Virus record (IMG/VR): IMGVR_UViG_3300050138_000133
From: an uncultured virus (IMG/VR IMGVR_UViG_3300050138_000133)
Taxonomy: Duplodnaviria > Heunggongvirae > Uroviricota > Caudoviricetes
DNA: 20,000 bases
Direction: 5' to 3' (one strand)
In this document: piece after piece, positions 2,568 through 20,000 of the stretch
How the letters are laid out: each line of letters starts with the position of its first letter
Numbering within the stretch: the first letter of the stretch is position 1
Program-made: the position numbers and the translations under genes
The notes under the pieces: model-generated
Database searches by the model: none
Told to the model about the DNA's origin: nothing
Seen by the model: the letters and a program-made list of their open reading frames with translations, nothing else

Positions 2568-2592
2568 TTTGTGCCCTTCTCCGTTTTATACG

Positions 2593-3072
2593 TTACGAGA
2601 TGCGGATGAGCGCCAGCGTCGATGAATTGGTCGGCAAAATAACGGTGAACGTGCCGGCGGCAACGGATTGAGTGCCGCCAAAATCGAAGGTGCCAACGGT
2701 GCGACCAGCGACTCCGGTGCCGGCGTCGGCCGTCGAGATCACCGCTGAGGTCGCGGAGAATGTCGCCGTCGTCCAATTCGGATTGACGGAGAATGACGTT
2801 ATGGCGACGCCGGATGATAGCGCGGGCGCGACATTGGTTAGCGCAAAGCCAAGCGTGGTATAACCGGCGCCAGAGACTTCGTCGGTGCCGACGTTACTGA
2901 CGGTCGGCGCGCTGCTGCCCGGAGTGCCGATATTGGCCAGCGTATTATCGTAGGTGCCGCCCGGCGTAACTTTGATGAGCAACATTTTGTAGGCAAGACC
3001 GCCGGTTTTAAAGTTGTGGCCACCTTCGAGGCAGGCGCGCTTGAAGTCTTGGCTGAGTGCGGTGGTGGCCAT
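2593..3072 (-). CDS. Conserved phage virion structural protein
   Basis: 159 aa. FKxxxLxGxHNF...EVSGAGYT...WTTATFSA...DFGG...GTFTV pattern seen in phage structural proteins. GGAG RBS. Confidence 0.75.
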   Translation of the reverse strand: MATTALSQDFKRACLEGGHNFKTGGLAYKMLLIKVTPGGTYDNTLANIGTPGSSAPTVSNVGTDEVSGAGYTTLGFALTNVAPALSSGVAITSFSVNPNWTTATFSATSAVISTADAGTGVAGRTVGTFDFGGTQSVAAGTFTVILPTNSSTLALIRIS

Positions 3073-3163
3073 GTTTCAGTCTCCCAAAATAAAAACTACG
3101 GCGCGCGCCGCGGCCGATATGATGACGATGATTGCGAGTGAGGGTTAGGAGACCAGACGAATG

Positions 3164-3592
3164 TCAGGCCGAGAGACGGGCTGCTGCCTTATGCACGTCA
3201 CGATGGACGTTCATCTGCGAGCGCGTTTCGTGTTCAAGTTCCTGCATGATCGCGGCCTGCACGTCGGCGCGCTCGAAATGCGCAGCCAAGCCGTGGCCCT
3301 CATTATACGAGGCCGCGACGATCTCTTTCAGAATCGCAGCATCGACAACCGCTGTCAGCGGGTGATCGTACCTAGCCGCGCCATGCTCCGCGAGTGCGGA
3401 CTGCTCAGAATTTTCAACATCTGTGTGATGCTTGACGAGAATAGCTTCGACCGCCTTACGGAAGGCGCGCGAGGCGTTGACAAGATCAATCGGGGCATTC
3501 TCGCCAACTACAACGATTTTTTCGGCGGTAACTTCCGCGTGGAAGTCGGCGGGATGGAAATTGTTACCGTTCGTAATCATGACGCGGGTCAT
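3164..3592 (-). CDS. Hypothetical phage protein (alpha-helical)
   Basis: 142 aa, AGGAG RBS upstream, co-oriented with the operon. Confidence 0.75.
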   Translation of the reverse strand: MTRVMITNGNNFHPADFHAEVTAEKIVVVGENAPIDLVNASRAFRKAVEAILVKHHTDVENSEQSALAEHGAARYDHPLTAVVDAAILKEIVAASYNEGHGLAAHFERADVQAAIMQELEHETRSQMNVHRDVHKAAARLSA

Positions 3593-3643
3593 CGATATCT
3601 CCTGTCTACATAATTCTAATTTGAAGAAGGTGCGCCGCTAGGG

Positions 3644-5197
3644 TTAGGGGTAAGACCCGTATCCTGTGGTCGGATTATGGTTGTAGTATTTGATCGATGA
3701 CAGAACCTGCTCGCCTGTGAGGTCAATCAACGTCGATCCACCCCGGATCAGTTTTATTTCCTGCGATCCCGCGTTGAACGCCACACGAGTATGGGTCATT
3801 CCAGATGGGACGGCGGTATCAGTAGTAGTTCCGCCGCTGATGACCCGCAGAATAGCCGGCGCGGTCAACCGTGTAGTTACATAGATATTGTCGACCAGAT
3901 CGAAGAACGCTGTTGTTACGCTAAGATTAGAGAATGCCCGACTTGTGATTGTCGATGTTTCAAAGGTCGAATAGGTGCCCGTTCCGCCGCTGCCGTTTCC
4001 ATCAAACGCGCTCACCGTGACGTTGCCGCCGGTGCTTGTTAGAACTTGGCCCAAGTAGATCGGGCCGCCTGATGCGGCTGTCACGGTCAACGTCTTTGAC
4101 GAGTGCGACGCGGTTAACGCAGTGGCTGTTGGAGTAGCCGCTGCGGGCTGCGTCCGGTAGCAGTAGAAAACTTCATCCGAAATGATTGCCGGCTGCCCGA
4201 GGGTCTTGAACTGCGAGATAAAGCTCTTGTGGAACTTCGCAAACCCAATGTGCGGCGACTGCGCGGGCCACGCATAAGTCCCGGCTCCATTTAATGCCAT
4301 CAACGAAGGATCGGCCGGCGTGATATAGGACTCTCCTATGTCGTTCCATGTGCATAGAAGCACCCAGGGCGGCTTCTGCGTGTTGATGATCGAGGCCCAC
4401 TGCGCCGCAATACCTTCGTAGCCGAAACGTTCAACAGCAAGTATGGATGTTTTGGAGAAACTGGTTTGTGCGTAATAGCTGTTGAGTCCCGCAAGATATA
4501 TCCGGCTGTTGTCGCGCATGACCTGCGCGTAGGCTTCCTCCGATGTGATGAGATCGCCGGTCGAGCCATTCGAATTGATCGCCAGCCCGTCGAAGACGAA
4601 GTAAAATAGCCCGCTGGCGACGCTGTTCCACCACGTACTGAAATCGCTGGTGATCTCCGCATAGGTCGGGTTGTCGGTGTTGATCTGCCCGCCTGTTGGG
4701 CGTCGCGTTACGAAGTTAGGATAGAACGAAACCTGAAAGCCGCCACTAAAGACCGAGGCCCAAAAAGTCTGCCCCGCAGCGCTATCCGAACCTGCTCCAT
4801 GCTCCCCACTACTGGTCGTCAGAAACGGCTTACTGGCAAACCAGTAATAATTAGTGCTACTGACCCCTGTGGACGTGGCGGGAGCCGTTCCCTTGAAGGT
4901 ATTAACCATGTTCTGCACGTCAGCAGCGACGAGTGCACCGCCCACCTCCGCTGACATGAATAATTTAAATTTAGTCCCATCCGAATTGTTCGATGCAGCC
5001 TGTGCAGCGGCGAACATCGCAGCAGCATGGGTTTGATAGTTTGAATCCCATGCGCCGGCCGCTATCGCAAAGCCGTCAATCCCTAGCGCCTGCGCGTCAA
5101 TAATGTCTTGCGCGTAGTTGGCCTGCAAGAACCCGTAGGTGCTGGTTGCAAGCATATAGTACGCGAACACCATCGGCGTTTGGTGCTGGGTAAACAT
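3644..5197 (-). CDS. Glycoside hydrolase family 71 (alpha-1,3-glucanase/mutanase-like) protein
   Basis: 517 aa. GH71-type motifs VFAYYM, DIIDAQALGIDGFA, FKLFMS, TWNDIGES, VFYCYRTQP and a C-terminal sandwich DNIYV...LIRGG...YNHN. TGATG overlap with the upstream gene. Confidence 0.85.
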   Translation of the reverse strand: MFTQHQTPMVFAYYMLATSTYGFLQANYAQDIIDAQALGIDGFAIAAGAWDSNYQTHAAAMFAAAQAASNNSDGTKFKLFMSAEVGGALVAADVQNMVNTFKGTAPATSTGVSSTNYYWFASKPFLTTSSGEHGAGSDSAAGQTFWASVFSGGFQVSFYPNFVTRRPTGGQINTDNPTYAEITSDFSTWWNSVASGLFYFVFDGLAINSNGSTGDLITSEEAYAQVMRDNSRIYLAGLNSYYAQTSFSKTSILAVERFGYEGIAAQWASIINTQKPPWVLLCTWNDIGESYITPADPSLMALNGAGTYAWPAQSPHIGFAKFHKSFISQFKTLGQPAIISDEVFYCYRTQPAAATPTATALTASHSSKTLTVTAASGGPIYLGQVLTSTGGNVTVSAFDGNGSGGTGTYSTFETSTITSRAFSNLSVTTAFFDLVDNIYVTTRLTAPAILRVISGGTTTDTAVPSGMTHTRVAFNAGSQEIKLIRGGSTLIDLTGEQVLSSIKYYNHNPTTGYGSYP

Positions 5198-7047
5198 CAG
5201 GCATCAGCCGCCATTGCGCGGATAGAGGGCTGGGTTTGTCCGGTTGACCAGTAATGCTCCCAAGTATGGTAGCGTCCGCGCTCTGTGGCAAAATTGGTGT
5301 TCGTGCTTCGGATTAGTTCGCCTTCGGGAAGCACCCACACCACAGAACCATCGCCGGGATAAGCAACGGCGCCGTTGTATTCTGTTGCGCCGTCAAGCGC
5401 ACAGACCGGAGCGAACACATAAGTCTGTACGGTCGTCAGGGAGCTGATCCAGTATTCGGTTGCCATGGTGTCCGACGCAAGAAAGTGATGGTCCGAATTA
5501 GATGTAATGTTCGCTGTGGTAGTCATGCCGTTCGGATTTTGAATAAGGGCGACTTCTCCTCCAATCGTTGCCGCAGAGAATCGCATTGCGACCGACATCA
5601 ATTTTGCAGCCGCCAGAAGATCGACGGCGGTATATCCGGCGGTCGTACCGCTGCCGCTGTCCGCCGTGATAAGCCGCTTGGTTGAAATCGTTGGGACGGT
5701 AATGACACCGGCAGCCGCAATCTGCGTATAAGCCTGCCCGGTCGGTGCGGTCCCGATAGCACCGTCTGCACGGTCGAAGTCATCGAAGAACGTCACACCC
5801 GCCTTGGAAAGCGTTGCACACGAGACGCCGGACTGCGCGGTTCGCAGGAACGTGGCCCTGGCAATCGTGGCATTGAGATACCCCGTGGTTCCGCCGCCGA
5901 ACTGCCCTTCGTTGAAACCGGTTGGCGAAGTGATGGCTGCCGTGACCGCGGTTTTGCCATTCAGCGACGCTGTGATGCCAGTCGGGGAAATCGCCAGAAC
6001 AACAGTTGATCTGGTCAGGATTGGCACCACGCCGATTGTCGTGTCAGTCAGCGTCGATCCGCCGGAAACTACCTTGCACTTGAGCAAGTAGCCTGACGTG
6101 TAAATCTCAATCCGGTTGTTGGCGGCATCGCCCGAAATCCGTTCCTCCCAAACATTGAAGTTTGGATTGAGACGCGGCGCATTGAACGAAAGCGCAACCG
6201 TTCGGTTTACGCTAGCAAAATAGGCCGAGCCGCCCGACAGCAACGCCACATCCGCCGACCGTGTCGCGGCGGGCTGGAAGGTGGAACGATAAGCAGATTT
6301 CTCAATCTGAGGCCGCTCGATGCGGTATTTTGCATTGATCGGCGTTCCGCTAACAACAACGGGATTGATCGGATAGTAGGTAAGCCGCGCCGTCGTCGCC
6401 GGAAGCGTTCTCACATACTGCTGCGGGAACACCTTGTCGCTCTGCGGGGCCGCCCCGGCCTTATAGGTGCTGTTCCCGATCAGTGCCCCGGCTGCGGTAT
6501 AGTATTCAAATAACTGATCTGAGGGGCTGTTTATCCCCGTCGATTGGAAGCAGCGAACGAAAGCTGACCCGCACCATACATCCCCAGCGACGCAAACGGC
6601 GCCGCCGGTCCCGGTCGGGTTGACGCCTACATAAAAACCAGCAGTTCCGGTCGGAGTTCCAACGAACGTAAATTCAATACCCGTTGCATCTAGTGCAGTA
6701 ATCGTTGTCGTAATCCCGCCCGGCATTCCCTTGAATGTCCAGCTAGTCGGGAATGCGCCACCGGAGCCAATTACCCCGGTCGCAGCGCCCGCTAATGTCG
6801 GGCTTGACGCACTGTTGACAGCCGACGCCTCGATCAGCAGTCCTGCCGAAGCGGCGAATATCTCGTCACAACTGATTCGGGCGGCATTGATCGCGGCGGT
6901 CGATAGCGAATAGTCCGAATTGACAACCTGCGCCGTTGTGGATCGAGTGACGGAAACCCCAGCGGAGTTACCGGCCGCAAAATTACAATCTATGGTGCCG
7001 ACTAAATTGCGCAGGACGTTTTTACGAGCAGATACCCTCGATGGCAT
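5197..7047 (-). CDS. Head-spike/fibre-like multidomain protein with LamG-like and lectin-like domains
   Basis: 616 aa. VTRSTTA...AINAARI...GLLIEASAVN and PQIEK...STFQP..TRSAD motifs of phage fibre proteins, then a LamG-like region and an FFDDFDRADG-initiated domain. Confidence 0.75.
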   Translation of the reverse strand: MPSRVSARKNVLRNLVGTIDCNFAAGNSAGVSVTRSTTAQVVNSDYSLSTAAINAARISCDEIFAASAGLLIEASAVNSASSPTLAGAATGVIGSGGAFPTSWTFKGMPGGITTTITALDATGIEFTFVGTPTGTAGFYVGVNPTGTGGAVCVAGDVWCGSAFVRCFQSTGINSPSDQLFEYYTAAGALIGNSTYKAGAAPQSDKVFPQQYVRTLPATTARLTYYPINPVVVSGTPINAKYRIERPQIEKSAYRSTFQPAATRSADVALLSGGSAYFASVNRTVALSFNAPRLNPNFNVWEERISGDAANNRIEIYTSGYLLKCKVVSGGSTLTDTTIGVVPILTRSTVVLAISPTGITASLNGKTAVTAAITSPTGFNEGQFGGGTTGYLNATIARATFLRTAQSGVSCATLSKAGVTFFDDFDRADGAIGTAPTGQAYTQIAAAGVITVPTISTKRLITADSGSGTTAGYTAVDLLAAAKLMSVAMRFSAATIGGEVALIQNPNGMTTTANITSNSDHHFLASDTMATEYWISSLTTVQTYVFAPVCALDGATEYNGAVAYPGDGSVVWVLPEGELIRSTNTNFATERGRYHTWEHYWSTGQTQPSIRAMAADA

Positions 7048-7050
7048 GAC

Positions 7051-7863
7051 TTAATCCTGCAGGGCGTCGAGCGTGACCGTGAACACCTCTCCCGTCCCCG
7101 GCGTCCATGTGCCGCCGTTGCGAGCTTCGAGTATGCCGTAAATGATCTGCGCCGTGGCGACGTAAGGGATCGATCCGCGCGAATTGTCCGGTGCCCCGGT
7201 GCCCCACGCCACGTCCGAGAATCCGACAAAAGTCGGGATGTCGATGTAGCCGAGATAGCCCTTACCCGAGGCGACAACTACGGTGGTCATTGCCGAATTA
7301 TCGCCGGCGCTTGTAAATGTCGGAATGGTATTGAACAGATGCAGGCGCAGCGAGGCTGTTACAGTATTGACCGACTTCTGGATCGACGCGCCGACGATAA
7401 CGCCGGAACTACCGGAAACACGAGCCAAGGTCGTAAACTGCAAAGCGGCGACCGAACCCGCCGTAACCGAGTTGGCGACCAAATCGCCTAGCGTGTAAGC
7501 GGTTGTATCAGCGGGTCTTGTAACTGTGGATGACGCCGCCTGCGTGATTGTGAGGCCACCCGTTGCCACCGGCGTCATCGACGCAATGCCCTGCATCGAG
7601 ACGACCTGTGTCGAAGCCGAGCCTGCCGTACCGACCGTTAGTGCGCCAGTAACGAGCGCTTGAACGCTGGCGCTGATCTGCTTCCAGATCGATATGCCGG
7701 AAACTGCAGTCGTGTCCGTTGCTGTGGACTTGGCGTCGGCTTTCGCGCCAAGCGTGGCCTGGCCGCCATCTGCCATTAAGGCGTCAATGGTGGATACATC
7801 GCCCGTGCCCGTGTTCGGAACGCCATTAACGACACCGACTTTATTTCCAGCAATGGCTGCCAT
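7051..7863 (-). CDS. Virion structural/decoration protein
   Basis: 270 aa, A/T/G/S-rich N-half. C-terminal domain TRPADTTAYTLGD...LRLHLFN...YGILEAR seen in phage structural modules. Confidence 0.7.
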   Translation of the reverse strand: MAAIAGNKVGVVNGVPNTGTGDVSTIDALMADGGQATLGAKADAKSTATDTTAVSGISIWKQISASVQALVTGALTVGTAGSASTQVVSMQGIASMTPVATGGLTITQAASSTVTRPADTTAYTLGDLVANSVTAGSVAALQFTTLARVSGSSGVIVGASIQKSVNTVTASLRLHLFNTIPTFTSAGDNSAMTTVVVASGKGYLGYIDIPTFVGFSDVAWGTGAPDNSRGSIPYVATAQIIYGILEARNGGTWTPGTGEVFTVTLDALQD

Positions 7864-8961: not shown

Positions 8962-9162
8962 CTATTTCAGTTTCAGCGTTGGCTTGTTCTGATTAGTCGA
9001 TTTCACCACGGGTTCTTCCGGCGCAATCTCGGCCTTTTCTTCGGGCTCATCCGATCGTTTCTGCATCTTGATGGATTGCAGCAATTCCCGCAAATACCGC
9101 GCGCGCGGTGATTCGTATTCGGCATCGCCCTTGGCGAGATAATCTTTTCCTGCTTGCATCAT
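8962..9162 (-). CDS. Small charged hypothetical protein
   Basis: About 66 aa starting MMQAGKDY. ATG at 9162 overlaps the upstream TGA (ATGA). The track start at 9171 is less likely. Confidence 0.65.
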   Translation of the reverse strand: MMQAGKDYLAKGDAEYESPRARYLRELLQSIKMQKRSDEPEEKAEIAPEEPVVKSTNQNKPTLKLK

Positions 9163-10346
9163 TTCCAGCACTCTTCCGGGACACCGTTCTGTTGAAAATC
9201 AGTCATTGACTGATAGTGAACATTCAAATTGATGTCGGGCCATCGCGCCATAAGCTCGGCATGGCCAATTGCAACGCGATTTGCGAGATGGAGCGAATTG
9301 CCGGCGGTTTCCCACTTGCGCCAAAATTCGATGTCTTCATCGATATGACCTTCATTCCAGTCTAGATCTGGAGACGGCACGGACTGAAACCACGGCTTCG
9401 CCATCTTCTTAAGCGCCGCTGTTCTGATCAGCGTAAGCCCGAAGTGCGCGGTTGAAACCTGAGAGGTATCACCTTCGAATCGAGTGCGCGGAATGGTCGG
9501 CGCATTCTTTTCCGCTGAATCGTCTCGAACCGTGAACAGTGCCGTATTTAGATGGCGCGATGATTGGATGGGCGCTAGTGCATCAATGTCAGGGTAAAGG
9601 CACATTAGCTGCATGAGATGCGCCAGATGGCGGGGCAGGAAAACAGAATCGTAATCGATAGTAAGGATCGCGTCCGGATCATCTTCCTCGATGATCCGTT
9701 CAAATACCTTGGTCATCGACTGGCCCCAGAAGGCACCGCCGTGTTTTCGCAACTTCACATGACAAGGAAGGCACGCTTCCATGCAACTGAAAAAATTATC
9801 GGTGAAAGTAAGTCTCGGCATGCTCATCGCGCCGGAGACATTGATCTCCGGCATATGAGGCTTGTACGCCTCCAGGTTCAGCGAGATCGGATAAGCAGCG
9901 CAGTCCTCGATTTCCGAAACCCATGGCCGGATTAGAACTAGACCCTGGCCGGCGAGTAATGCCCGCAATTTGTCGCGATCGAACATCGCCTTGTGGTAAT
10001 CGTTCTGGTCGACCTGGCCGCCCATCATGTACATTTCATGAGGCTGCGCTTTGCCGTTCAGATAATCCTCCGCAATCGTTTTGAAATCTGGAACGGCGAT
10101 CTTGAGTTTGCCGCCCTTCTTGAGAGCGCGAACCCAATCCTTCAGGACCGCTTCTACCTGGCGGTGCGGGAAATGTTCGAGGACGTGAGAGGCAACAATT
10201 TCGTCAACCGATCCATCGGCGTAGGGCAGCGGATATATCTCAGACCCGTAATCTCTGCCGAGCGGAATGAAACTGGGGCGCGCAATTTCGCCTGCGCCTA
10301 AATCAAGTTTAATCTCAAATTTCGGAAGCGTAGCTTCGATATGCAT
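9159..10346 (-). CDS. Class I SAM-dependent methyltransferase fused to a GT-A (GT2-like) glycosyltransferase
   Basis: 395 aa. N-half has LDLGAG, LPYADGSVDEI, SHVLEH and RALKKGGKLKIAVPD. C-half has a DxD motif (ILTIDYD), HFGLTLI, KPWF, DEDIEFW and IGH. Confidence 0.85.
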   Translation of the reverse strand: MHIEATLPKFEIKLDLGAGEIARPSFIPLGRDYGSEIYPLPYADGSVDEIVASHVLEHFPHRQVEAVLKDWVRALKKGGKLKIAVPDFKTIAEDYLNGKAQPHEMYMMGGQVDQNDYHKAMFDRDKLRALLAGQGLVLIRPWVSEIEDCAAYPISLNLEAYKPHMPEINVSGAMSMPRLTFTDNFFSCMEACLPCHVKLRKHGGAFWGQSMTKVFERIIEEDDPDAILTIDYDSVFLPRHLAHLMQLMCLYPDIDALAPIQSSRHLNTALFTVRDDSAEKNAPTIPRTRFEGDTSQVSTAHFGLTLIRTAALKKMAKPWFQSVPSPDLDWNEGHIDEDIEFWRKWETAGNSLHLANRVAIGHAELMARWPDINLNVHYQSMTDFQQNGVPEECWK

Positions 10347-10447: not shown

Positions 10448-10918
10448 TTAACCCTCGACGAGCGAGAGCACGCCGGCTTTAGCTGCGGTCGACGGCGATT
10501 GTTCGGCTCGGAAACCGTTAGCGTTGACGGCGAACGTCTGCGTCGTGGTCGGCGAAACAACGACGTTCAGGTAACGCTTGCGGGAGCGGCAATCGACGTT
10601 GAACTTGTAGGCGTTCACGCCGGAGGTCTTGCCGACGCCCAACACATAATCGACGTTAGTCGCAGCGGCAGAGCCGCCGCGGAAACCGACGACGTCAGCG
10701 AAGCTGGTAACGACAGTCGTATCGCTTTCCTGGATCTTCAGAACGGAAGGCGAACCAGCCTGCGTCGACGCGCTCTGCGTGGTCGCGGAAATGTCGATGG
10801 TGACAAAATCGACACCCAGCGTATCGATATTCGCCGACGTTCCGGTTCCGGCGTTGGTTACGGCGCCGATGCTACCGGTGTTGGCATCGAGAAGAAGTTT
10901 AGCTGCGGGAACAGTCAT
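10448..10918 (-). CDS. Capsid cement/decoration (head-fibre base-like) jelly-roll protein
   Basis: 156 aa from ATG 10918 with an AGGAGG RBS, preferred over the track start at 10978. IDTLG...KIQESD...KRYLNV pattern, located just after the major capsid gene. Confidence 0.75.
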   Translation of the reverse strand: MTVPAAKLLLDANTGSIGAVTNAGTGTSANIDTLGVDFVTIDISATTQSASTQAGSPSVLKIQESDTTVVTSFADVVGFRGGSAAATNVDYVLGVGKTSGVNAYKFNVDCRSRKRYLNVVVSPTTTQTFAVNANGFRAEQSPSTAAKAGVLSLVEG

Positions 10919-11026
10919 GGGTGCCCTCCTTGGGCAAAGAGATAGTGAACGTCGCCGTATCCGCTGAATTGCGGCCACGTCGTTATGTCGTCTTTAGGCA
11001 ATTGCCCTTGGGACAGGATTGCGAGG

Positions 11027-11259: not shown

Positions 11260-12585
11260 TTACGGAGCGACCAGCGAAACCAACGGGCCGGCATTCGTGT
11301 TATCACCGAAATCATGGGCCGATATGTCAAATCGCTCTGTCCCGAGTAACCCGATCTGATCGTTCTCGAAATACCGATGGTCCGAACGCTTGATCGTCAC
11401 GCCGCGGCGTTCGCCCATCATCGCCGCCTTGGTCAGGTCGCCGAAGAAAAGCATCGCCTTGGTGGTCTGCGACGCTGCGGTGATCGGAAGTTTCTGAGCG
11501 ATCGTCACATCGAAGCCGAGCAGCCGCTTCTGGATGCCCTCCGAGAGGATATCGAGACGGTTGCCACCAGCGCCGGCCAAGAGACTCGCAACGCAGGAAT
11601 AGAAACCCTGTTGCGACATATACCATTTGGCACCACCGAACGCGTACTGCGGCAGCGTACCCATCAATCCCGTGAGATCGCCCAGCGTCAGCAACGCGAA
11701 GGTATTGTGGCCAGTAGCCGCAGTGAACTTCGATGCGTTGTGATTGCCATCGGTCGCAAGCACGGTAAGACCGCGAATACCGCCGTAGGGGCTAGACCCG
11801 TCGCCGTTGAAACCACAGTCGTCTTCTTTCGAAGCGAAGGCGTAGGCCATTTCGCCGACAAGCCAGTCAGCGATCGCGACTACGGCATCCTGTTCGATTT
11901 CAGTCGACATGCGGGTCAACACGGCACACTTCTTAGCGGTCAGGTTGACGTTATCCCAGGAAGCCTGAGACTCGGTCACGCCCTGATTTTCACCAGTGAA
12001 GAACGCAGTCAGGCCACCAGTCCGACGCGGCCAATTGAGCGTATCGGAACCCATCGGGACGACCTGGCATTCCTGCCGGAAGACGCCGAATTGTTCACGA
12101 AGCACGATGATGTTGGCCATCAGCTCTTCGGGAACGAGGTAGCCGCCAGCGCTGTCAACGCCTTCACCCTGTGCCTTCTGAATGCCAATGCCGCGCGCCT
12201 TGCACCAATCCTGCGCTTCTGGATTGTCCATCAGGGTCGCTTTGAACCACATGCCGGCCGTGTACGCCTGATCGACGGCACGATACATTTGACCCTTGAT
12301 CTCGCGATCCTGGAAGTTCTTCACCGTGCTGAACAGCTTGTGTGCGCTGGGAGGAGCGAACGGCGTCAGACGGTCCTGACCGGGGACGGCGGTCGCGAGG
12401 TTACGCGCGATCGTCTCGGCCTCTTCAACGCGCCCGAGGCGCGCAGTAACTTCGACGAACTTTTCCTTAAGTGCGTCGTAGATATCCTGCTTGAAGCCCT
12501 CATCCTCGGACTTGCCGGCCATTTTCTCGATTTCGTCAGCCAGCGCAGAGAGCTGCTGTTTGACTTCATGTTTCTTGGTCGCCAT
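11260..12585 (-). CDS. Major capsid protein, HK97 family, full length with N-terminal scaffold/delta domain
   Basis: 441 aa. Coiled-coil-like N-terminus, GGYLVP, VNLTAKK, FNGDG, LLGFDV, FFGDL and ERFD motifs. Follows the prohead protease. Confidence 0.95.
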   Translation of the reverse strand: MATKKHEVKQQLSALADEIEKMAGKSEDEGFKQDIYDALKEKFVEVTARLGRVEEAETIARNLATAVPGQDRLTPFAPPSAHKLFSTVKNFQDREIKGQMYRAVDQAYTAGMWFKATLMDNPEAQDWCKARGIGIQKAQGEGVDSAGGYLVPEELMANIIVLREQFGVFRQECQVVPMGSDTLNWPRRTGGLTAFFTGENQGVTESQASWDNVNLTAKKCAVLTRMSTEIEQDAVVAIADWLVGEMAYAFASKEDDCGFNGDGSSPYGGIRGLTVLATDGNHNASKFTAATGHNTFALLTLGDLTGLMGTLPQYAFGGAKWYMSQQGFYSCVASLLAGAGGNRLDILSEGIQKRLLGFDVTIAQKLPITAASQTTKAMLFFGDLTKAAMMGERRGVTIKRSDHRYFENDQIGLLGTERFDISAHDFGDNTNAGPLVSLVAP

Positions 12586-12717
12586 CGCTATGTTTCCATA
12601 AATGTCGCTGGAGCGCTGCCCGGGCGCGTGAAAATGGGCGGTATCGCCAGCGACGCGATGCGCGGCCCGACTCCCGGTTGCTCCAGGTGTCGGTCGGTAG
12701 AAATTCAGAAAGATATT

Positions 12718-14046
12718 TTAGATTTGGACGGAAGCCCTTAGCGCTTTCGCCTCTGCGAGGCGTTGTTCGCGCACGGATTCCGCACTGAGAACCGTAACGG
12801 TCGGGACAGGATCAACGTCCGGCTCTACGTCATTGTCGCCATCAGGATCGGCAGCCGCGTTGCTGGCCAGAACATCCTTGATGCATTCTGTTGCGGACGC
12901 GTGATGGTCCATTGCCTTCTGCAGCAACGCCTCGTTGGCGTTGCTGATCTTTCGCCCAGCCTTATCCACTGGCGCGATAATAATTTCTGCGGTTACGTCT
13001 TTTTGTTCGGTGATATCTTTTTGCTCGTATTCGTCGGCGATTTCCTTCGCCAACTCGATGACATCAACGGGCGCTTCAGTCTGGGCGAGGCGCACCTGAG
13101 CGGCCGTAACGCCAGATTTAATCGCCTTTAGCTCACCGTCGACGATATCGGCGAATGGCAGTTTATAGCTGCTTCGCAGCACGGGATTCGCGGCGTCGTG
13201 AATAAGGAAGCCGCGAGCGGCCTTGGCGCCATCTGGGCAATCGCCATCGAATCCGGCATCATCGAGAACGCGTTTCGCCGCGGCGGCGCCGTCCCAAATC
13301 TCGGCATCGGCTACCGGTAAATCATCGGCGGCGCCGACCTTCCAGTCAGCCGCTTCGGATTTCGCTAGATATTTCTGGCGCGTGGTGCGCGGGGTCTTGG
13401 CCTGGCGGAACGTTTCCTCAAGCACGTTGCGCGGGATCAGCACCTTGCCTTCGCCGTCCAAAATTCGCTCCGCCCATTCCGAGATCGGACCCGTATCAAT
13501 GCCGGCTGATCGCGCATCGATCAGAGCATTTTGATTGCAAGGAATTGGGCACAAACTGACCTCGAGTAAAATTTGCTTGATAAAATCCAAGCCCGATGGC
13601 CGCTTCTTGTCCTTGGAGAATTCCCATTCAGTCGGGATGAAGCCGACCGAGACCGCATTTAGGAATTTGCCGCGAACCATTTTTGCAAGCGTAGCAGCAA
13701 ACGGATAAATATCTTCCGTTACGAATTCGAGATCGCCCTTCAGTTTGCCGGCGATAATTCCCAAGTTTTCCCATCGCCCAATGGGTGGCATAGAACTATC
13801 GTGGCACCAGAGGCCGACTCCGTTCTTTTCTTCGAAGTCTTTAAGATTTGTCCATCCAGATTGTTTGATGAGATCTCCGGAAAGATCTATGCTCTCGTCG
13901 CTGCATGTAAACCGAAAGACGTTCGGATTTGCGCCGTCGACCTGAGCTGGATCGCCAGGCATCGCCCGCAAAATACGGCAATCGGGTTGTGCGCCATCCT
14001 TGGCGGCAATCCTGAACGCATCTGCAGTCAAGAGTTCTATCGGCAT
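12718..14046 (-). CDS. HK97-family prohead maturation protease with an additional C-terminal domain
   Basis: 442 aa. SDESIDLSGD, LWCHD (His), PIGRW, AVSVGF (Ser) and LLEVSLCPIPCN motifs, followed by a WDGAAA...YKLPFADIVDGEL domain and a KAGRKIS motif. Confidence 0.92.
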   Translation of the reverse strand: MPIELLTADAFRIAAKDGAQPDCRILRAMPGDPAQVDGANPNVFRFTCSDESIDLSGDLIKQSGWTNLKDFEEKNGVGLWCHDSSMPPIGRWENLGIIAGKLKGDLEFVTEDIYPFAATLAKMVRGKFLNAVSVGFIPTEWEFSKDKKRPSGLDFIKQILLEVSLCPIPCNQNALIDARSAGIDTGPISEWAERILDGEGKVLIPRNVLEETFRQAKTPRTTRQKYLAKSEAADWKVGAADDLPVADAEIWDGAAAAKRVLDDAGFDGDCPDGAKAARGFLIHDAANPVLRSSYKLPFADIVDGELKAIKSGVTAAQVRLAQTEAPVDVIELAKEIADEYEQKDITEQKDVTAEIIIAPVDKAGRKISNANEALLQKAMDHHASATECIKDVLASNAAADPDGDNDVEPDVDPVPTVTVLSAESVREQRLAEAKALRASVQI

Positions 14047-14057
14047 TGAAACCTCGT

Positions 14058-14981
14058 TCAGTCTATCGGTGCGCCTAGCGCGGCTAGGCGGGCGCGCAGC
14101 CGATCAATGAGAATGTCTTTTTGGTGGTGTGTGAGCCAGCGATTGACTTTAGTCGCCGAATGGCGATTGCGACCGGCTTCGGATTTTTCGCCAACACTTT
14201 TCTCGTCGTGACAGACGGCGCATAGCACCTGAAGATTAGCTAGCTTCGTTTGTCCGCCACGCATCATTGGTATGATGTGGTCAATCTGCCATGTTTTTGG
14301 TGGCGCAAAAAAATCGAGCGGGACAGCACAATTCTGGCAGGATGACCCGGATCGCTCAAACAGAAACGCTCTTAGAAATTTTCCAGAAGCGCCGCGCGAT
14401 GCATATTCAGCGTCTGGATCGGCCAACATTTTAGCTCGGCCTGTATTTAGCCGCGCCGACTTGCCGAGATATTTCTGAAGTACCCCAATGTGATGCCCGC
14501 AAAGCGTGTTTCGCGCGTAGTCACCCTTGCGGGTAAGCAGCGTCTTGTGTGCAAGATATTGTCGGCCGCGGCTAGATTGAAGGATGGTTCGACAGGCCAT
14601 CGTCTCATTGCATTCTGGCCAACAACATTTTATTTGATGAAGGCCGAATGCATCGGTGCATTCTCTCGAGCAAAATGTGCTCTTCTTCAACTGGCTTCGC
14701 CGCCGTGTTACGGGATTACCGCATTGATGGCAGGGCGCACTTACATGCGTCCTAAGTTCTACCGCCTCACAACATGCCTCTGAGCACAGCCACTTGCCTG
14801 CTGTCGGATGCGCTCTCTTCGGGTTTGTTTTTCGGATTAATCTATTTCTCCGGCGATAGTGCAGTCTATTGCATTCGTCGCAGGGGACGACTTCTCCGGT
14901 TTTTGGTCGGCTTCCGACCTTCCGCGCGATTGCGGGGATGCTGTCAAACAGATCAAAAAGGGGTAATGTATTTTTAGCCAT
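14058..14981 (-). CDS. HNH endonuclease with N-terminal Cys-rich zinc-ribbon repeats (probable free-standing homing endonuclease)
   Basis: 307 aa. CDEC..LCSEAC and CHQC..FCSREC repeats. C-terminal CQNC...IDHIIP..RGG....NLQVLCAVCH. Confidence 0.88.
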   Translation of the reverse strand: MAKNTLPLFDLFDSIPAIARKVGSRPKTGEVVPCDECNRLHYRRRNRLIRKTNPKRAHPTAGKWLCSEACCEAVELRTHVSAPCHQCGNPVTRRRSQLKKSTFCSRECTDAFGLHQIKCCWPECNETMACRTILQSSRGRQYLAHKTLLTRKGDYARNTLCGHHIGVLQKYLGKSARLNTGRAKMLADPDAEYASRGASGKFLRAFLFERSGSSCQNCAVPLDFFAPPKTWQIDHIIPMMRGGQTKLANLQVLCAVCHDEKSVGEKSEAGRNRHSATKVNRWLTHHQKDILIDRLRARLAALGAPID

Positions 14982-15057
14982 TGTCTCGCGCCTCCAGCGC
15001 AGATGATGGTTAGGGTTGGCGCGGTGTTACAAGCACTGCGTCAACCCGCTAATTTTA
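14982..15057 (-). promoter_or_regulatory. -10-like box plus 14-bp hairpin (copy A) and RBS-occluding hairpin of the HNH gene
   Basis: TAAAAT-TAGC-GGGTTGACGCAGTG-CTTGTAA-CACCGCGCCAACCC-TA, then TCTGCGC-TGGAG-GCGCGAGA directly before ATGGCT. Confidence 0.55.
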
Positions 15058-15108
15058 CACTTTCTCCCGTTAAAATACTAGAAGTTTCCAGTTACCGGCA
15101 TCCCAAAT

Positions 15109-16170
15109 TTACGGCGCGACCAACGCGGCGAGCGGCCCGAAATTGTTGGAATCTCCAAGCCCATGCACGACTGCATGGAATCGCTCGGTTCCGAGGACGG
15201 CGATCTCGTCCTGATCGAGATAGCGATCCGCCGAACGCACCAGGGTCAGACCGCGGCGCTGCCCGAGCGCCCCGCCCTTATACATGTCACCGAAGGCGAG
15301 CATCGTGGCGCCGGAAAGCGTCGTACTGATCAGCGGAAGTTTCTGAGTAAGGATGACGGGGAAGCCCTGGAAGTAGGGTGTCATCACCCCATCGAGTTCT
15401 GCCATGGGCAGATAGCCGCCGCCAGCGATGCGGATGAGGGTCTGAGCAAGACAGGTCTGAGAACAATACCATGCCGCATTCGGGATCGCGGCGGCTGTTA
15501 CCGACGCCATCAGACTGCCGAGATCATTCGAATCGAGCGTCAAAAATGTATTGTGGCCGGTGGCAGCAACGACCTTTGCCTTGGCATGATTGCCATCGAG
15601 CACGATGGATCCGATGCCGCGCATCGTTCCGTACTTCGAAGTCCCGTCGCCATTGAAGGCGCAATCGTCTTCCTGAGCTGCGAATGCGTAGCCGATTTCG
15701 TTCGCTACAAAATCAACGATGTCCGAGATCGCATCTTCTTCAAGCTCGCTCGATATCCTGATGAGCGAAGCGATCTTCTTGGCCGTAAGATTGACCTTAT
15801 CGAGAGTGACGGCGGTCTCTACGTTAACGCCAGCGCTGTTATTACCTCCAACGAAGAACGCGCTGGCGCCATCTAGGCGCCGCGGAACATCGGTACTATC
15901 AGACGCCATCGGAATGATGCGGGCGCGACGACGGAAGGCGCCGTAAGTATCGCGAATATCCAAGATCGCGTTCGAAAGTTCGTTCGGAACCAGGAAGCCG
16001 CCGCTGGAGTCGATACCTTCACCGGTGGCCTTTGTGATCGCCACGTTATTCGATTTGCACCACGTCAGCGCTTTTTCGTTATGATAGATCGTAGCAAGGA
16101 TCCATTGACCGGCGCGCTGATATCGCGCCTCGATCTCTGGACCACGCCCCGGAAACGCGCGATGCCTCAT
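15109..16170 (-). CDS. Second HK97-family capsid protein (short paralog lacking most of the delta domain)
   Basis: 353 aa. GGFLVP, VNLTAKK, EDDCAFNGDG, AATGHNTF, FGD, GTERF and C-terminal LVAP are shared with 11260..12585. AGGAG RBS and ATGA overlap with the portal stop. Confidence 0.92.
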   Translation of the reverse strand: MRHRAFPGRGPEIEARYQRAGQWILATIYHNEKALTWCKSNNVAITKATGEGIDSSGGFLVPNELSNAILDIRDTYGAFRRRARIIPMASDSTDVPRRLDGASAFFVGGNNSAGVNVETAVTLDKVNLTAKKIASLIRISSELEEDAISDIVDFVANEIGYAFAAQEDDCAFNGDGTSKYGTMRGIGSIVLDGNHAKAKVVAATGHNTFLTLDSNDLGSLMASVTAAAIPNAAWYCSQTCLAQTLIRIAGGGYLPMAELDGVMTPYFQGFPVILTQKLPLISTTLSGATMLAFGDMYKGGALGQRRGLTLVRSADRYLDQDEIAVLGTERFHAVVHGLGDSNNFGPLAALVAP

Positions 16171-17555
16171 TCGTCATCTCCTGATTCTAATTCGGTCGCG
16201 CCAGTGTTCTGGACGAAATCGCTTTGTTCGCTCACGATGTACGGCGCTATCGCGGATTTCTGCGGAGCGGCCGGTGTACTTGGAGTATCCGGCAACGTTC
16301 CGCCATCGGGACGACCGGCACCGTCCGGCGCTGCGCCTGACATGTCCGAACCGCTGGGCGCAAGATTGACCGGCGTTAGAAGGACGTCGCCGCCCTCCAA
16401 AGGAGGATCGCCATTTTCGGCGCGGCATTCATTTTGTGTCGAGATGCCCGACATGATCTTGAGGCGCTGGTTATTGATCCGCGTCGCTTCCGCGGCACGA
16501 AGCAATCTGCGCTCGTCGAAATCAGCAACTAGACCTTCTTTATCCAGATTGAATTTCTGAACGAACTTCTGTTCCCACGCGTCTAGATCAGGCATGATCG
16601 TGGTATTGACGTATTGCTGATCGGCGTCGTCAACCTTGAGCCTCGACATCTCGCCCTTGATGCCGAGCTTGTAGAGCGGCATATCAAACCAGCGCGCAAT
16701 GTCGCCTATCGAATATTCACGCTGCGCTATGAATTCCAGATCAACCGAGCTAAGCTGCGTCGCCTGCCATTTCAGTCCCTCTTCAAGGATCGCAGTTTTT
16801 CCGGCGTTGTTAATGCCGGATCTGAGCTGTTCCCATTGCGTTCGCAATCGGGTTGCGGCGTCGAGAGATAGAAGTTTGTCCGTCTGCAGCACGCCACTCG
16901 GACGCGCTCCGTTATTCATGAATCGTGCGGCTTGCTGTTCGAAGCCCATCGCTAGACCGATCGAGTCTCGCGCGATCGAGATCAGAGAAAGGCCCATCAG
17001 CATATTGAAGCCGATATTCCGAAGATGAAAAATATCCTCTTCCGGAATCATCAGTGGTTGCGTTTTCAGGATGGCATTCAAAAAGATGCCCTGACGCGTT
17101 ACCGAATAGAAGATTTCGCCGCCCGGCGCCTCGTAAAGGATTACAAGATCCGGATTGATCGGAATCAGCGCGGTCGGATTTCCCCGCCCATCCCGCATGA
17201 TGACCGCAAACGCGTTGCCGCGAAGCAAATACGCTCCGTGCATCTGGCGAGCCCATTCGGTCCAGTCTTGCCACTGATTTGGGCGTTTGAATAATTTCGC
17301 GACCGGATGATTCGTGATCGGCTTATCGGCGCGCGCAGAATTCTCTCTCATCAGCCGCGGCGAACAACGCGCAACATCCTTCGACCTAATCGAGATACAA
17401 GCAAAGACCGTCGAAACACTGACGGCGGTTGTCTGATTGACGGCAAGTCCAGTTGCGGACTTCGTTCCACCGAGCAACGGATATAACGTGGAATTGCCGG
17501 TAGCTTTTTCGACCGTCCCGCCAAATACGCGGCGGCCCCAGTCGATCAAACCCAT
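16167..17555 (-). CDS. Portal protein, HK97 family
   Basis: 462 aa. VFACI, LLRGNAF, IFHLR, GLSLI, NGARPSGVL, ILEEGLKW, IARWFDMP and NECRAEN motifs. Confidence 0.96.
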   Translation of the reverse strand: MGLIDWGRRVFGGTVEKATGNSTLYPLLGGTKSATGLAVNQTTAVSVSTVFACISIRSKDVARCSPRLMRENSARADKPITNHPVAKLFKRPNQWQDWTEWARQMHGAYLLRGNAFAVIMRDGRGNPTALIPINPDLVILYEAPGGEIFYSVTRQGIFLNAILKTQPLMIPEEDIFHLRNIGFNMLMGLSLISIARDSIGLAMGFEQQAARFMNNGARPSGVLQTDKLLSLDAATRLRTQWEQLRSGINNAGKTAILEEGLKWQATQLSSVDLEFIAQREYSIGDIARWFDMPLYKLGIKGEMSRLKVDDADQQYVNTTIMPDLDAWEQKFVQKFNLDKEGLVADFDERRLLRAAEATRINNQRLKIMSGISTQNECRAENGDPPLEGGDVLLTPVNLAPSGSDMSGAAPDGAGRPDGGTLPDTPSTPAAPQKSAIAPYIVSEQSDFVQNTGATELESGDDE

Positions 17556-17566
17556 AAAGAATTTCC

Positions 17567-19447
17567 TTAGACGACTAGAATCTCTCTAGTCTCATATACT
17601 GAGGCGTCGGACCCAAATTCGGCGATTGCCGCACCCGTCGACATCGCTATCGTTACGAGACCGTCAATTCGTCCGCGTGAGCGTTTTTTATCGAATGCCC
17701 TGTTCTTCTGACCGTCTGCAATCAGAAGGGCATTCGCCGCGCAAGAGTAGGTCACGGGCGACCGCTCGATGGTGATGCCGTTGTTTAGAATTCGATCCTC
17801 GAGTCGCTCAACGGAGCGCGGCATACATAGCCGCTCGATCGGTTGCCCGTTCTGATCCAACTCTTTGTAGAAAATAACTCGCGTACCCTGACCATGCGAA
17901 ACTAGTTTAAGACCTTGGCCCCGATCAGTGTCCGGACCTTCCCAGAGCCAGACCGCGAAACCGTTCGTCTCGCAAGCCTTCATGAAGTCGCCCATGCCGG
18001 CCGGATCGAATGCTAGAAACTGAACATCGAACTCGCTGCAGATCTCGGCGACCTTGGCTGCGATATAAGTCTTGTCGATCACGGCACCGGTGACTGCTGT
18101 CAGATATCCGTCGGCTTCCCATTGCACATAAGGCGCGTTATCGGACGTCGCTCGATCGGCGAGTCCATCCTTCGTCGTCCAGTACCAGGTCTTGGCCCAG
18201 AGATGCTTGCTGTCGTCAATCCAAACTGCTGTTAGCGCTGTCAGATCGTTCTTCTGTGATAAATCGATCGATAGCCAGCATTTGCATTTCTTCAGTGCTG
18301 GCAGATCAAGGTCGCCCTGAACGGCCGACCATGCTTCTTCCGCAATCCAGAAGTCCACTGAGCCTAGCGGGATTCCGAAGAAGAGACGTTTGACGGACAT
18401 CGCCGTCGATATTTTCCATCTTGCCGTATTGACTTCGCCGCGGATATTTTCGACCGGGAAAGTAATATTAAGCGCGGGAAGCGCCTTAGACCAGCACGCC
18501 TCGTTATCGAAAACGGTTTCTCGGTCGGCCTTGTCGACGCGGGCGATGAAGGCAAAAGCCTCATCGTCCCTAATCTCTCCCCTCGCTACCTTCTGATAAA
18601 ATTCCGAATACTCTGTGCCAACGATCTGCGTTGACGCCGGCGTGTTTGTGCCAAGCAACATCAATGCGTCGCCCGACATTTTAGCGATTGCCCGCATCCA
18701 CGTCTCGATCGACGCGTTAGTTTTCATCTCGTGGATTTCATCAGCCGCAACGAGTATCGGCTTAGGTCCGGAGATCGCCTCGCCATTAGCCAGAGACTGG
18801 AAAACAGAATTAGTATCTGGATGCTCAATCTTGAAGGCATTATCCAGAATTCCGCGGATGACTACTTGGCCGCGGCTTTCTAGCGTGTCACCATCTTCCG
18901 GATCGGAGCCCGGTATAGGCGCGCGGCACATCGCCGCCGCATCCTTGAACAAGACATTCGCGGTCGCCTTATCCTGGCCGATCGCGTAGACCTTGGCGCG
19001 CTGCACGCCGTAATAGCCCATCATGTACAGGCCGATGGCGGCCATCAATGGCGATTTGGCTTGACCCTTTCCGGTCTCAAACCAGCCGGAGCGAAACCGC
19101 ATCCGGCCGGAGTCCTTACGCCAACCGAACAGCGAACCCACGCAAAACGTATGCCATGGCAAAAGATTGAAGGGCTGCCCAACCTTTGCACCCTCAGTAA
19201 TCGATAGGACTGCCGGGAAGAAACCGAAGGCATGTTCGGCTTTCTCTGGGCACCAGTGAAGGCCGCGCGCCGCGCCGTCTACCAAATCCTTAAGATGGCG
19301 CTCTGCGGCATGCCGGACTATCTCGCCGGAGACAATCTGTCCTTTGACGACATCACGCGCCCAGCGCGTGGTCGGATCACTTGGTAACCGACTTGAGGTA
19401 TCCACCGCCGATGAGCGACGGTTTTTGCCTCTGGACTTTTCCGCCAT
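17567..19447 (-). CDS. terL: Terminase large subunit
   Basis: 626 aa. Walker A ETGKGQAKS, Walker B VAADEIHE, RNase H-like nuclease IDLSQKNDLTA, FDP and RIDGLV. Confidence 0.96.
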   Translation of the reverse strand: MAEKSRGKNRRSSAVDTSSRLPSDPTTRWARDVVKGQIVSGEIVRHAAERHLKDLVDGAARGLHWCPEKAEHAFGFFPAVLSITEGAKVGQPFNLLPWHTFCVGSLFGWRKDSGRMRFRSGWFETGKGQAKSPLMAAIGLYMMGYYGVQRAKVYAIGQDKATANVLFKDAAAMCRAPIPGSDPEDGDTLESRGQVVIRGILDNAFKIEHPDTNSVFQSLANGEAISGPKPILVAADEIHEMKTNASIETWMRAIAKMSGDALMLLGTNTPASTQIVGTEYSEFYQKVARGEIRDDEAFAFIARVDKADRETVFDNEACWSKALPALNITFPVENIRGEVNTARWKISTAMSVKRLFFGIPLGSVDFWIAEEAWSAVQGDLDLPALKKCKCWLSIDLSQKNDLTALTAVWIDDSKHLWAKTWYWTTKDGLADRATSDNAPYVQWEADGYLTAVTGAVIDKTYIAAKVAEICSEFDVQFLAFDPAGMGDFMKACETNGFAVWLWEGPDTDRGQGLKLVSHGQGTRVIFYKELDQNGQPIERLCMPRSVERLEDRILNNGITIERSPVTYSCAANALLIADGQKNRAFDKKRSRGRIDGLVTIAMSTGAAIAEFGSDASVYETREILVV

Positions 19448-19877
19448 TGTTGCGTCGTCGCGGTGTGATGGTCAGCTCCGCTTCAGCGGCTGACGCCATC
19501 GCATTCGCATCCTTTAATACTGTGAACCACGGATTATAGGCGGGCTGCTTTTTGCCCTTGCGCGGGAACACCGCGCCTTCTTCCGCGACGTGGCGCATTG
19601 CGATCTCATATAGAACATAGCAATCTATCAGCCGCTTAATCTGGCGTTCATTAGCGTTCGCCAGTTTCTCGGAACTTCGAAGCTCGCCGACGATGACCCG
19701 CCATTGCTGGCGCGCCAACTCCTGATCTAGTTCATCAGTAAATTGCGTAGACCAATCCGGCTCGGTAATACCATCCACGATCGACAATGGAACCGGCGCC
19801 TTGCGTGGCTCCAGTGGAGACACCTTATCTTTTGGTTTGCGGCCGGCGCCGATACGCTTCCCGCCATGCATCGACAT
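19377..19877 (-). CDS. terS: Terminase small subunit, P27 family (start uncertain: 19871, 19877 or 19904)
   Basis: HGGKRIGAGRKPK N-terminus, YNPW...AELTITPRRR C-terminal motif. Overlaps the start of terL. Confidence 0.9.
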   Translation of the reverse strand: MSMHGGKRIGAGRKPKDKVSPLEPRKAPVPLSIVDGITEPDWSTQFTDELDQELARQQWRVIVGELRSSEKLANANERQIKRLIDCYVLYEIAMRHVAEEGAVFPRKGKKQPAYNPWFTVLKDANAMASAAEAELTITPRRRNNGGKVQRQKPSLIGGGYLKSVTK

Positions 19878-20000
19878 CAGATTTGAATTGTTCCTCAAAA
19901 TCAAGAAATCAAAATGATAACAAGTTCAATTTGTTATCGCCATATTGACCTCATTATGCGATGGGTCGGTCTTGATTTCAGGTCTTACTGCAAATGGAGC

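Follow-up and report, generated by a model that had tools for sequence, protein, structure and literature searches.

Here, we analysed a 20,000-nt stretch of DNA (the window) from an uncultured virus of the Caudoviricetes (IMG/VR record IMGVR_UViG_3300050138_000133), in which two genes for HK97-fold capsid proteins, a short one (S) and a long one (L), lie on the minus strand. Read along this strand, the gene order is terminase small subunit (TerS), terminase large subunit (TerL), portal, S, HNH endonuclease, prohead protease, L, a gene for a 157-aa protein, a methyltransferase-glycosyltransferase fusion and a head-tail adaptor. With terminases, a portal, a prohead protease and a capsid protein to which a coiled-coil scaffold is fused, the window has the gene set of an HK97-type head module. 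Judged from these genes and from its relatives, the window appears to be the head operon of a temperate, long-tailed HK97-like siphophage of Alphaproteobacteria, with relatives of 54-63 kb. The features of the two capsid genes are the following.

15109..16170, minus strand: short HK97-fold capsid protein S, 353 aa, without coiled coil, putative penton protein, akin to satellite capsid homologs
16030..16170, minus strand: S residues 1-47, shell-binding scaffold part up to the predicted cleavage site K47-A48 (structure model and alignments)
15367..15450, minus strand: S A-loop region, residues 241-268, at the capsomer centre (S-L identity 14%)
16170-16167, minus strand: ATGA start/stop overlap of the portal and S genes (read from sequence)
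16178..16182, minus strand: AGGAG Shine-Dalgarno-like element of the S gene, within the 3′ end of the portal gene (read from sequence)
11260..12585, minus strand: major capsid protein L (long form, HK97 fold), 441 aa, with a complete scaffold domain, putatively forming the hexons (PF05065, phrog_10)
12397..12576, minus strand: L residues 4-63, scaffold coiled coil of two long helices with a heptad-like hydrophobic pattern, missing in S

Two capsid genes and their domain anatomy

Both open reading frames are intact and match phrog_10 and PF05065, the latter at 113 bits for S and 145 bits for L against a curated cut-off of 24.2. BLASTP aligned S20-353 with L110-441 at 46% identity (154/338, E value 7e-103), which bears out an earlier sequence-only reading of the window, made by a model, that had described two intact paralogous HK97-fold capsid genes at about 45-50% identity. 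The motifs that it cited as common to S and L are all present, and so are the ATGA overlap and the AGGAG ribosome-binding site (16182-16178, 7-nt spacer), an element of this kind belonging to the S gene itself. About 90 N-terminal residues had been given as missing from S, and the alignment puts the number at 88, with S4 aligned to L89. As general marks of the pair, GHNTF and the contrast of FVGGNNSAG in S with FTGENQG in L did not hold: GHNTF occurs in only 2 of 25 L proteins, and the GGNN position of the window S is E in 107 of 120 S homologs among the matches listed, making GGNN a local quirk. Gene conversion as the source of the common AATGHNTF was rejected, since synonymous sites differ and solo capsids carry a similar motif.

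The L model contains two helices (residues 4-23 and 33-63) with a heptad-like pattern and a predicted local distance difference test score (pLDDT) of about 70-83; its E-loop and P-domain are poorly modelled (pLDDT 61), and only the helices and the A-domain were taken from it. S is without exactly these two L helices and keeps helices 11-27 and 32-40. Its predicted cleavage site at 47-48 has K/R in 120 of 120 and Ala in 118 of 120 homologs among the matches listed, and K47-A48 is aligned to K88-A89 of the capsid protein of the Rhodobacter capsulatus gene transfer agent (RcGTA). With 47 residues before the predicted site, compared with 137 in L, S has the shorter propeptide expected of a dedicated vertex protein. 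The S model (pLDDT 88) found its best folds in the capsid proteins of RcGTA, a capsid-forming phage-inducible chromosomal island (cf-PICI), HK97 and D3. RcGTA Rcc01687 (PDB 6TB9) was the best match of S in both sequence (E value 5e-15) and structure (Z 18.2, root-mean-square deviation (rmsd) 6.0, 262 aligned), and S was also superimposed on HK97 prohead I (S 17-353 on 79-382, Z 15.5, rmsd 4.4, 247 aligned) and on the D3 prohead (S 16-353 on 81-394, Z 15.9, rmsd 4.1, 254 aligned). RcGTA, HK97 and D3 proheads resemble the present pair in having a fused scaffold with a basic-residue cleavage site, whereas their single capsid protein forms both pentons and hexons.

In HK97, residues 2-66 are described as coiled-coil towers that bind the portal, and residues 76-103 as a spoke lining every capsomer (PMC10275583); in D3, the corresponding region, associated with the P-domain, holds three capsomers together like a clamp (PMC12749128). 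By homology, S would keep the parts for joining the prohead and for cleavage and be without the portal-binding part. Since it carries the shell-binding scaffold part and the K/R-A site, S is probably processed in the prohead. A mismatch of trimeric coils with five-fold capsomers was discarded as the reason for the coiled-coil loss, because D3 pentons form five-stranded coils (PMC12749128).

Between S and L of the same genome, identity is highest in the N-arm (69%) and the P-domain parts (52-56%), where pentons and hexons would meet, and falls through the E-loop (46%) and the first A-domain stretch (38%) to 14% in the A-loop, which is predicted as a beta-hairpin in S and a helix-loop in L. Among 154 family members, the aromatic residue closing the A-loop hairpin is found in 81 of the 84 remaining long capsids, in 56 of the 62 short capsids (a set that includes several probably truncated gene calls of long capsids) and in none of the 8 proteins of the L clade delimited below, while a GGN motif is found in 64 of 84, 7 of 62 and 8 of 8, respectively. 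L alone has thus lost the hairpin turn and the aromatic residue common to solo capsids and short forms, and S and L each retain a different part of the ancestral capsomer-centre loop.

Codon use points to a lower expression of S: the share of C-ending codons is higher in L than in S in 24 of 25 loci, with S level with the protease, and the effective number of codons is lower in L in 20 of 25. With respect to distances among genomes, S gave partial rho values of 0.49 with L, 0.47 with the protease and -0.06 with the portal, the last with L held fixed (171 non-independent pairs). Portals have been exchanged among relatives (about 40% versus 80% identity), and S tracks L and the protease instead. 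The coupling of portal and S proposed in the sequence-only reading is right for the overlap in the window but is not a family trait, as only 5 of 25 loci overlap and gaps reach 358 nt; one further locus (L025) has a 3-kb insert between portal and S. Translational coupling together with co-evolution with the portal was rejected on the overlap count and the partial rho.

Conservation, distribution and kin of S

A protein search with S gave 402 matches among 6097 candidates; the 120 of them listed are all 347-363 aa long, 63-100% identical to S, and share the same start motif. We compared pairwise the ratio of nonsynonymous to synonymous substitution rates (dN/dS) in 25 distinct loci with both capsid genes complete, using unsaturated pairs only, which are non-independent. 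The medians were 0.28 for S (219/300 pairs), 0.21 for L (298/300), 0.39 for the protease (157/300) and 0.46 for the portal (122/171), and S was about 1.6 times faster than L at nonsynonymous sites. This result indicates that S is no relic but is conserved and under purifying selection. The sequence-only reading had named an absent, degraded or neutrally evolving S in relatives as the outcome that would speak against it, and S proved intact there.

Two PF05065 matches were found in 5 of 5 large records. Named hosts of the relatives are Bradyrhizobium elkanii, an Afipia metagenome-assembled genome (MAG) and a Caulobacteraceae MAG, and the sequencing runs containing the window stretch are peat and permafrost metagenomes, with no RNA run listed among them. 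A complete 62.7-kb relative (78 open reading frames scanned) carries integrase, repressor, tape measure, minor tail genes and endolysin, and tape-measure genes occur in two further relatives. The tail type of the window phage is taken from these relatives, the nearest record being a 31-kb fragment without a tape-measure match. Among cultured GenBank phages, 203 records match S, all at less than 60% identity, and the 40 listed are at 25-28% with one place each.

To see S from the side of its partner, IMG/VR was searched with L, without selection for S, and the best 80 of 122 matches were kept, giving 79 loci. The L clade comprises 42 of these (at least 64% identity to L, plus L038, which joined in the tree with support 100), of which 4 stop short of the region upstream of the protease, leaving 38 informative contigs. 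A short partner is present in all 38: S in 36 and a different short capsid, Y, in 2. Outside the L clade, no second capsid was found in 25 informative loci (12 others were uninformative), and a complete 57.7-kb relative has one PF05065 gene. Y is a coiled-coil-less capsid protein of 354 aa, which in L021, a locus without S, is encoded after the 157-aa gene (L021:6870-7934). In L060, also without S, a Y-type gene was predicted at this place and then found, the first 52 codons being present before the contig end cuts it (L060:10018-10173). No locus with both S and Y occurred among the loci searched. A scan for close relatives of Y gave only Y itself and two solo capsids; the proteins P0121, P0322 and P0324 were also noted as homologs of Y. 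From these sequences, L now appears to need a short partner. The retention in 38 of 38 contigs fits the essentiality of dedicated vertex proteins, while not amounting to a knockout.

We then looked at where the kin of S occur. When representatives at 50% identity were searched with a profile, the best 150 included about 20 further clusters with lengths of 330-400 aa. A short capsid was the sole strong match in 3 of 401 genomes of the family of the Afipia MAG; an order-level search of 401 genomes gave no new element. Kin of S lie on six elements, three in these genomes, G210 (L219), G259:C263 (L223) and G069:C91 (L222), and three in the IMG/VR loci L226, L227 and L064. On each of the six, a conserved helical gene of about 200 aa immediately precedes the short capsid gene; integrase and replication genes are seen wherever the sequence extends far enough, and a portal gene is missing. 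PF04860 (portal) was found neither in G210, a 7.3-Mb genome on one contig, nor in G259 or any of the three virus records, of which two are small fragments; in G069, PF04860 lies on other contigs than the short-capsid element. Variably, protease, TerS, TerL or a tape-measure-like gene is also seen on the elements. Integrase, a replication-family match and capsid occur together in G069, G259 and L227, and G210 has a primase-helicase and capsid, so that integrase, replication module and capsid gene, from the core of phage-inducible chromosomal islands (PICIs) as listed in 10.1101/2022.09.14.508007, are represented. A TerS match was found in G069 only (phrog_51, E 8e-5), and there were no matches to alpA, merR or stl regulator families. 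Tape-measure-like genes occur in L226 and L227 and TerL in L064, though none of these was seen in the G069, G259 and G210 stretches, and we therefore speak of satellite-like elements and do not class them as PICIs. For the helical gene, neither PDB nor Pfam gave a match, and its likeness to Psu/Sid is no more than a lead, from a high-scoring atlas entry for PF07455 (Psu); it has no match in any S-bearing phage locus. PICI capsid homologs have already been described in Gammaproteobacteria (PMC6092414; 10.1101/2022.09.14.508007), and the six elements are apparently undescribed satellite-like elements of Alphaproteobacteria.

In mature-shell trees, S groups with G210/G259-type capsids (94/91, LG+C20) and L with single-capsid phages (98/95), and a clade of S and L was rejected with the A-loop columns included (p 0.0004 with 42 rows, p 0.011 with 37 rows). 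Without the A-loop, S, Y and the G210 type are still joined with support 94, while monophyly of all short forms, at 97 under LG+G4, is unresolved under C20 and lost without the A-loop. The derived residues common with S number 5 in the G210 type, 5 in the G069 type, 3 in Y and 2 in L. S as a plain paralog by duplication, which the sequence-only reading had implied, therefore gives way to the better reading that S was probably gained laterally from a satellite-associated pool, the direction of transfer being tentative. In 3 of 4 sequencing runs (X8, X9, X11), the sequence next to a match to 15637-15673 on a contig, the same in all three runs, appears by eye to encode a short capsid of the G210 type. 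G210-type elements thus share samples with the window phage, which shows no helper relation.

The rest of the head operon

The remaining features of the window are as follows.

19377..19904, minus strand: terminase small subunit (PF05119, phrog_83)
17567..19447, minus strand: terminase large subunit (PF03354, PF20441, phrog_9)
16167..17555, minus strand: HK97-type portal protein (PF04860, phrog_12)
15013..15047, strand not assigned: 16-pair hairpin between the S and HNH genes (only z = -1.5 for the fold of the intergenic stretch)
14058..14981, minus strand: HNH endonuclease, 307 aa, intact, with a Cys-rich N-terminal part (PF01844)
12718..14046, minus strand: prohead protease (PF04586, phrog_80)
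10448..10921, minus strand: 157-aa protein encoded after L and kept in relatives, probably of the cement/decoration kind (no more than a lead)
9159-10346, minus strand: fusion of a methyltransferase and a GT2-like glycosyltransferase

The placement of S between portal and protease given in the sequence-only reading is right in order, but the intact HNH gene (14058..14981) between S and the protease had been missed. This gene is missing in most relatives, where the protease starts within a few dozen bases of S, and HNH homologs of 32-44% identity lie at the same S-protease site in three metagenome loci (L126, L141 and L157). A different 350-codon insert was seen at this site in L026. The S-protease junction is an insertion hotspot and the HNH gene an optional insert. 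Promoter and terminator scans gave no excess over shuffled sequence.

The 157-aa protein is kept in relatives and has a high-scoring atlas lead to the cement family PF21190 (Bbp16), covering 18% of the cluster. The methyltransferase-glycosyltransferase fusion, directly after the capsid and cement-like genes, is kept in two-capsid and many single-capsid relatives, and a nucleotide-sugar epimerase adjoins it in G004; it is a candidate for virion glycosylation. Soon after the head-tail adaptor, positions 739-7863 hold several long genes of low complexity that match tail or virion proteins weakly, among them a glycosyl hydrolase family 71 gene (3644-5197, minus strand; PF03659, E 8e-42), and this region is possibly a depolymerase or head-fibre module. 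In the near-identical phage L014 (S 99%, protease 99%), the first ~260 L residues are identical to those of the window and the A-domain is strongly different (11260-11800 vs L014:3384-4697), and the next two genes after L fall to 83% and 70%. These differences mark a recombination tract that runs from the part of L coding for its outer face into the two genes behind it, the cement-like one and the methyltransferase-glycosyltransferase fusion. In L240:804-4766 (same contig as L035 and L090), S stands at the end of a 1321-codon open frame, which runs over the TerL and portal genes in a different reading frame; in a genome so rich in GC, codon bias has probably produced it.

Possible roles of S

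We consider it probable, with some reserve, that S forms the pentons and L the hexons of one head. The sequence-only reading had proposed a penton role among others, and it remains the best reading, the vertex position being a putative one. Beside the retention of a short partner across the L clade, the purifying selection and the conserved cleavage site, the divergence of the A-loop and the codon bias speak for it indirectly. In the mechanism that we propose, L, the abundant form, would nucleate on the portal through its coiled coils and build the hexons, and S, made at a lower level, would co-assemble into the prohead as 11 pentamers (55 copies) at the other vertices. S would join the lattice through its retained clamp, N-arm and P-domain, and the same protease would trim it at K47-A48, like L. 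An earlier suggestion that S co-assembles by using the scaffold domain of L is to be narrowed, as S retains its own shell-binding scaffold part and at most the coiled coil would be borrowed from L. S would have been gained sideways, after which L would have altered its capsomer-centre loop and come to depend, as it appears, on a short partner.

Three solved cases bear on this reading, and in all of them (gp24, Ccm and Jabs MCPp) the partner with the short propeptide is the penton protein, which we count in its favour. The mycobacteriophage Jabs is, like the window phage, an icosahedral siphophage with two HK97-fold capsid genes, the long one (MCPh) having a cleaved N-terminal domain and the short one (MCPp), without maturation domain, forming the 11 pentons of a T=9 shell (bioRxiv 10.64898/2026.07.24.740622). 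Unlike here, MCPh and MCPp are described as 18% identical and encoded in consecutive open reading frames, compared with 46% and the order portal-S-protease-L, and MCPp is without a propeptide, whereas S keeps 47 residues and a cleavage site. The present pair also differs from Jabs in its Alphaproteobacterial hosts, its clade of dozens of genomes, its satellite link and a vertex role that is so far only putative. Ccm of the satellite SaPIbov5 (355 aa, delta domain 87 vs 128 residues) is reported to form only pentamers, beside hexamers of the phi12 helper (PMC8569155). S resembles it as an HK97-fold homolog of about 355 aa with a shortened delta domain, cleaved in Ccm and predicted to be cleavable in S, and the nearest non-phage kin of S lie on similar portal-less elements. 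Ccm, on a parasite, shrinks the head, while S lies in the head operon of its own full phage, whose genomes give no hint of a smaller size; it is the kin of S on the six elements that share with Ccm a setting without portal and most virion genes. S and Ccm are compared here by their features. In T4, gp23 forms the hexons and gp24 is a dedicated vertex homolog with a shorter propeptide (10 vs 65 residues); gp24 is essential, gp23 lost the ability to form pentamers, and A-domain changes matter, some gp24-bypass mutations lying in the A domain of gp23 (PMC9958956). S is, as in such systems, a second HK97-fold gene in the phage's own head region. T4 differs as a large prolate myovirus with a separate scaffold and a pair of about 20% identity, thought to come from gene duplication, while S appears to come from outside the L lineage.

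Several points weigh against our reading. The E-loop, which makes shell contacts, is conserved at 0.48 in S and 0.87 in L, and Shine-Dalgarno strength is not lower for S, being stronger than that of L in 16 of 25 loci. At 46%, the identity of S and L greatly exceeds that of the solved penton/hexon pairs (18-24%) and may be close enough for irregular mixing, and solo HK97-type capsids form five-stranded coiled coils under pentons, so that loss of the coil is not required (PMC12749128). As to the co-occurrence, many loci are near-duplicates, with 30 distinct S C-termini among the 36, and Y in L060 is known from 52 codons. As to the origin, the rejection of an S and L clade reaches only p 0.13 without the A-loop columns and is not robust to their removal, and S has only 5 derived residues in common with the satellite capsids of the G210 type.

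Two alternatives are unlikely, and we give them about equal weight. One is a mosaic shell, in which S and L co-assemble in variable ratio at irregular positions and S tunes stability or surface without owning the vertices. The identity of the pair and its conserved N-arm and P-domain would allow this, and Streptomyces lydicus Family 2B encapsulins offer a parallel, as two HK97-fold shell proteins from one operon co-assemble there with irregular tiling (PMC12407261; entries 9bje/9bix), albeit in a non-viral shell described as having no scaffold or maturation protease. Such mixing is disfavoured by the A-loop, as the surface within the capsomer is where S and L diverge most, and by the segregation of all three solved phage or satellite pairs by capsomer type. 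The other is interference or counter-defence, where S competes with satellite Ccm-like proteins, poisons related competing phages or decoys host capsid sensors, and membership in the virion is not needed. The satellite-like setting of its closest non-phage kin, the G210-type short capsids read by eye in loose ends of 3 of 4 runs, whose elements share samples with the window phage, and the relaxed E-loop would agree with such a role. However, S has kept its place among the late head genes, its protease site is conserved, and it was not lost without replacement by another short capsid in any of the 38 informative contigs. Accessory conflict genes are usually patchy in distribution, unlike S. Interference is, moreover, not exclusive with the penton model.

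A capsid-size switch kept from a satellite past, by which S would make a fraction of small heads, is less likely again. It would follow Ccm, which shrinks helper capsids (PMC8569155), and the tracking of capsid size by coiled-coil length in HK97, D3 and T5 (PMC12749128), but the complete or near-complete genomes with S (54-63 kb) and the complete solo-capsid relative (57.7 kb) are too large for small heads, and none of the S-bearing phage loci gave a match to the helical gene that goes with the capsid homolog on each of the six satellite-like elements. We regard as very improbable that S forms the capsomers next to the portal under translational coupling. The position of S directly after the portal gene and the overlap in the window had suggested it; S is without the part equivalent to the HK97 towers that bind the portal (PMC10275583), most loci do not overlap, S follows L and the protease while portals are exchanged, and Y is encoded at a distance from the portal. 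A decaying or neutral duplicate has the least probability of all. The faster nonsynonymous change of S and a frameshift in one 1-kb contig (L130) could be read in this way, but a frameshift also occurs once in L (L156), so that both are probably assembly errors, and the reading is refuted by length conservation and by a dN/dS below those of protease and portal.

Separate penton proteins are known from T4-type phages, from Jabs, in whose 2026 preprint such a protein is called unprecedented among icosahedral phages (bioRxiv 10.64898/2026.07.24.740622), and from one satellite (Ccm). The known pairs all have about 20% identity, which leaves them too far apart for the origin of the split to be traced. 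Here, a 46% pair in dozens of genomes, with close single-capsid relatives and satellite-like kin, allows direct tests of the hexon/penton switch in the HK97 fold. In the full-text literature searched, with subscription journals mostly outside, neither the S/L clade nor a capsid gene of satellite type that has become fixed in the head operon of a phage was described. Taken together, our comparisons suggest that uncultured temperate phages of soil and peat bacteria keep a second, shortened capsid gene whose closest kin lie on satellite-like elements, and a gene by which a parasite redirects capsids may have turned into one of the core virion genes of its host phage's kind. More tentatively, as a possibility that we hold to be rather less likely than not to be right, a phage lineage took over from its own satellites the protein with which they hijack capsids and made it an obligatory vertex protein, using two different satellite-family genes (S and Y), the cognate short capsid in the pentons shutting out the Ccm-like protein of the parasite and the major capsid protein then losing the ability to form pentamers. 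If true, this would be one route to gp24-like vertex proteins, by phage-satellite conflict and not by tandem duplication.

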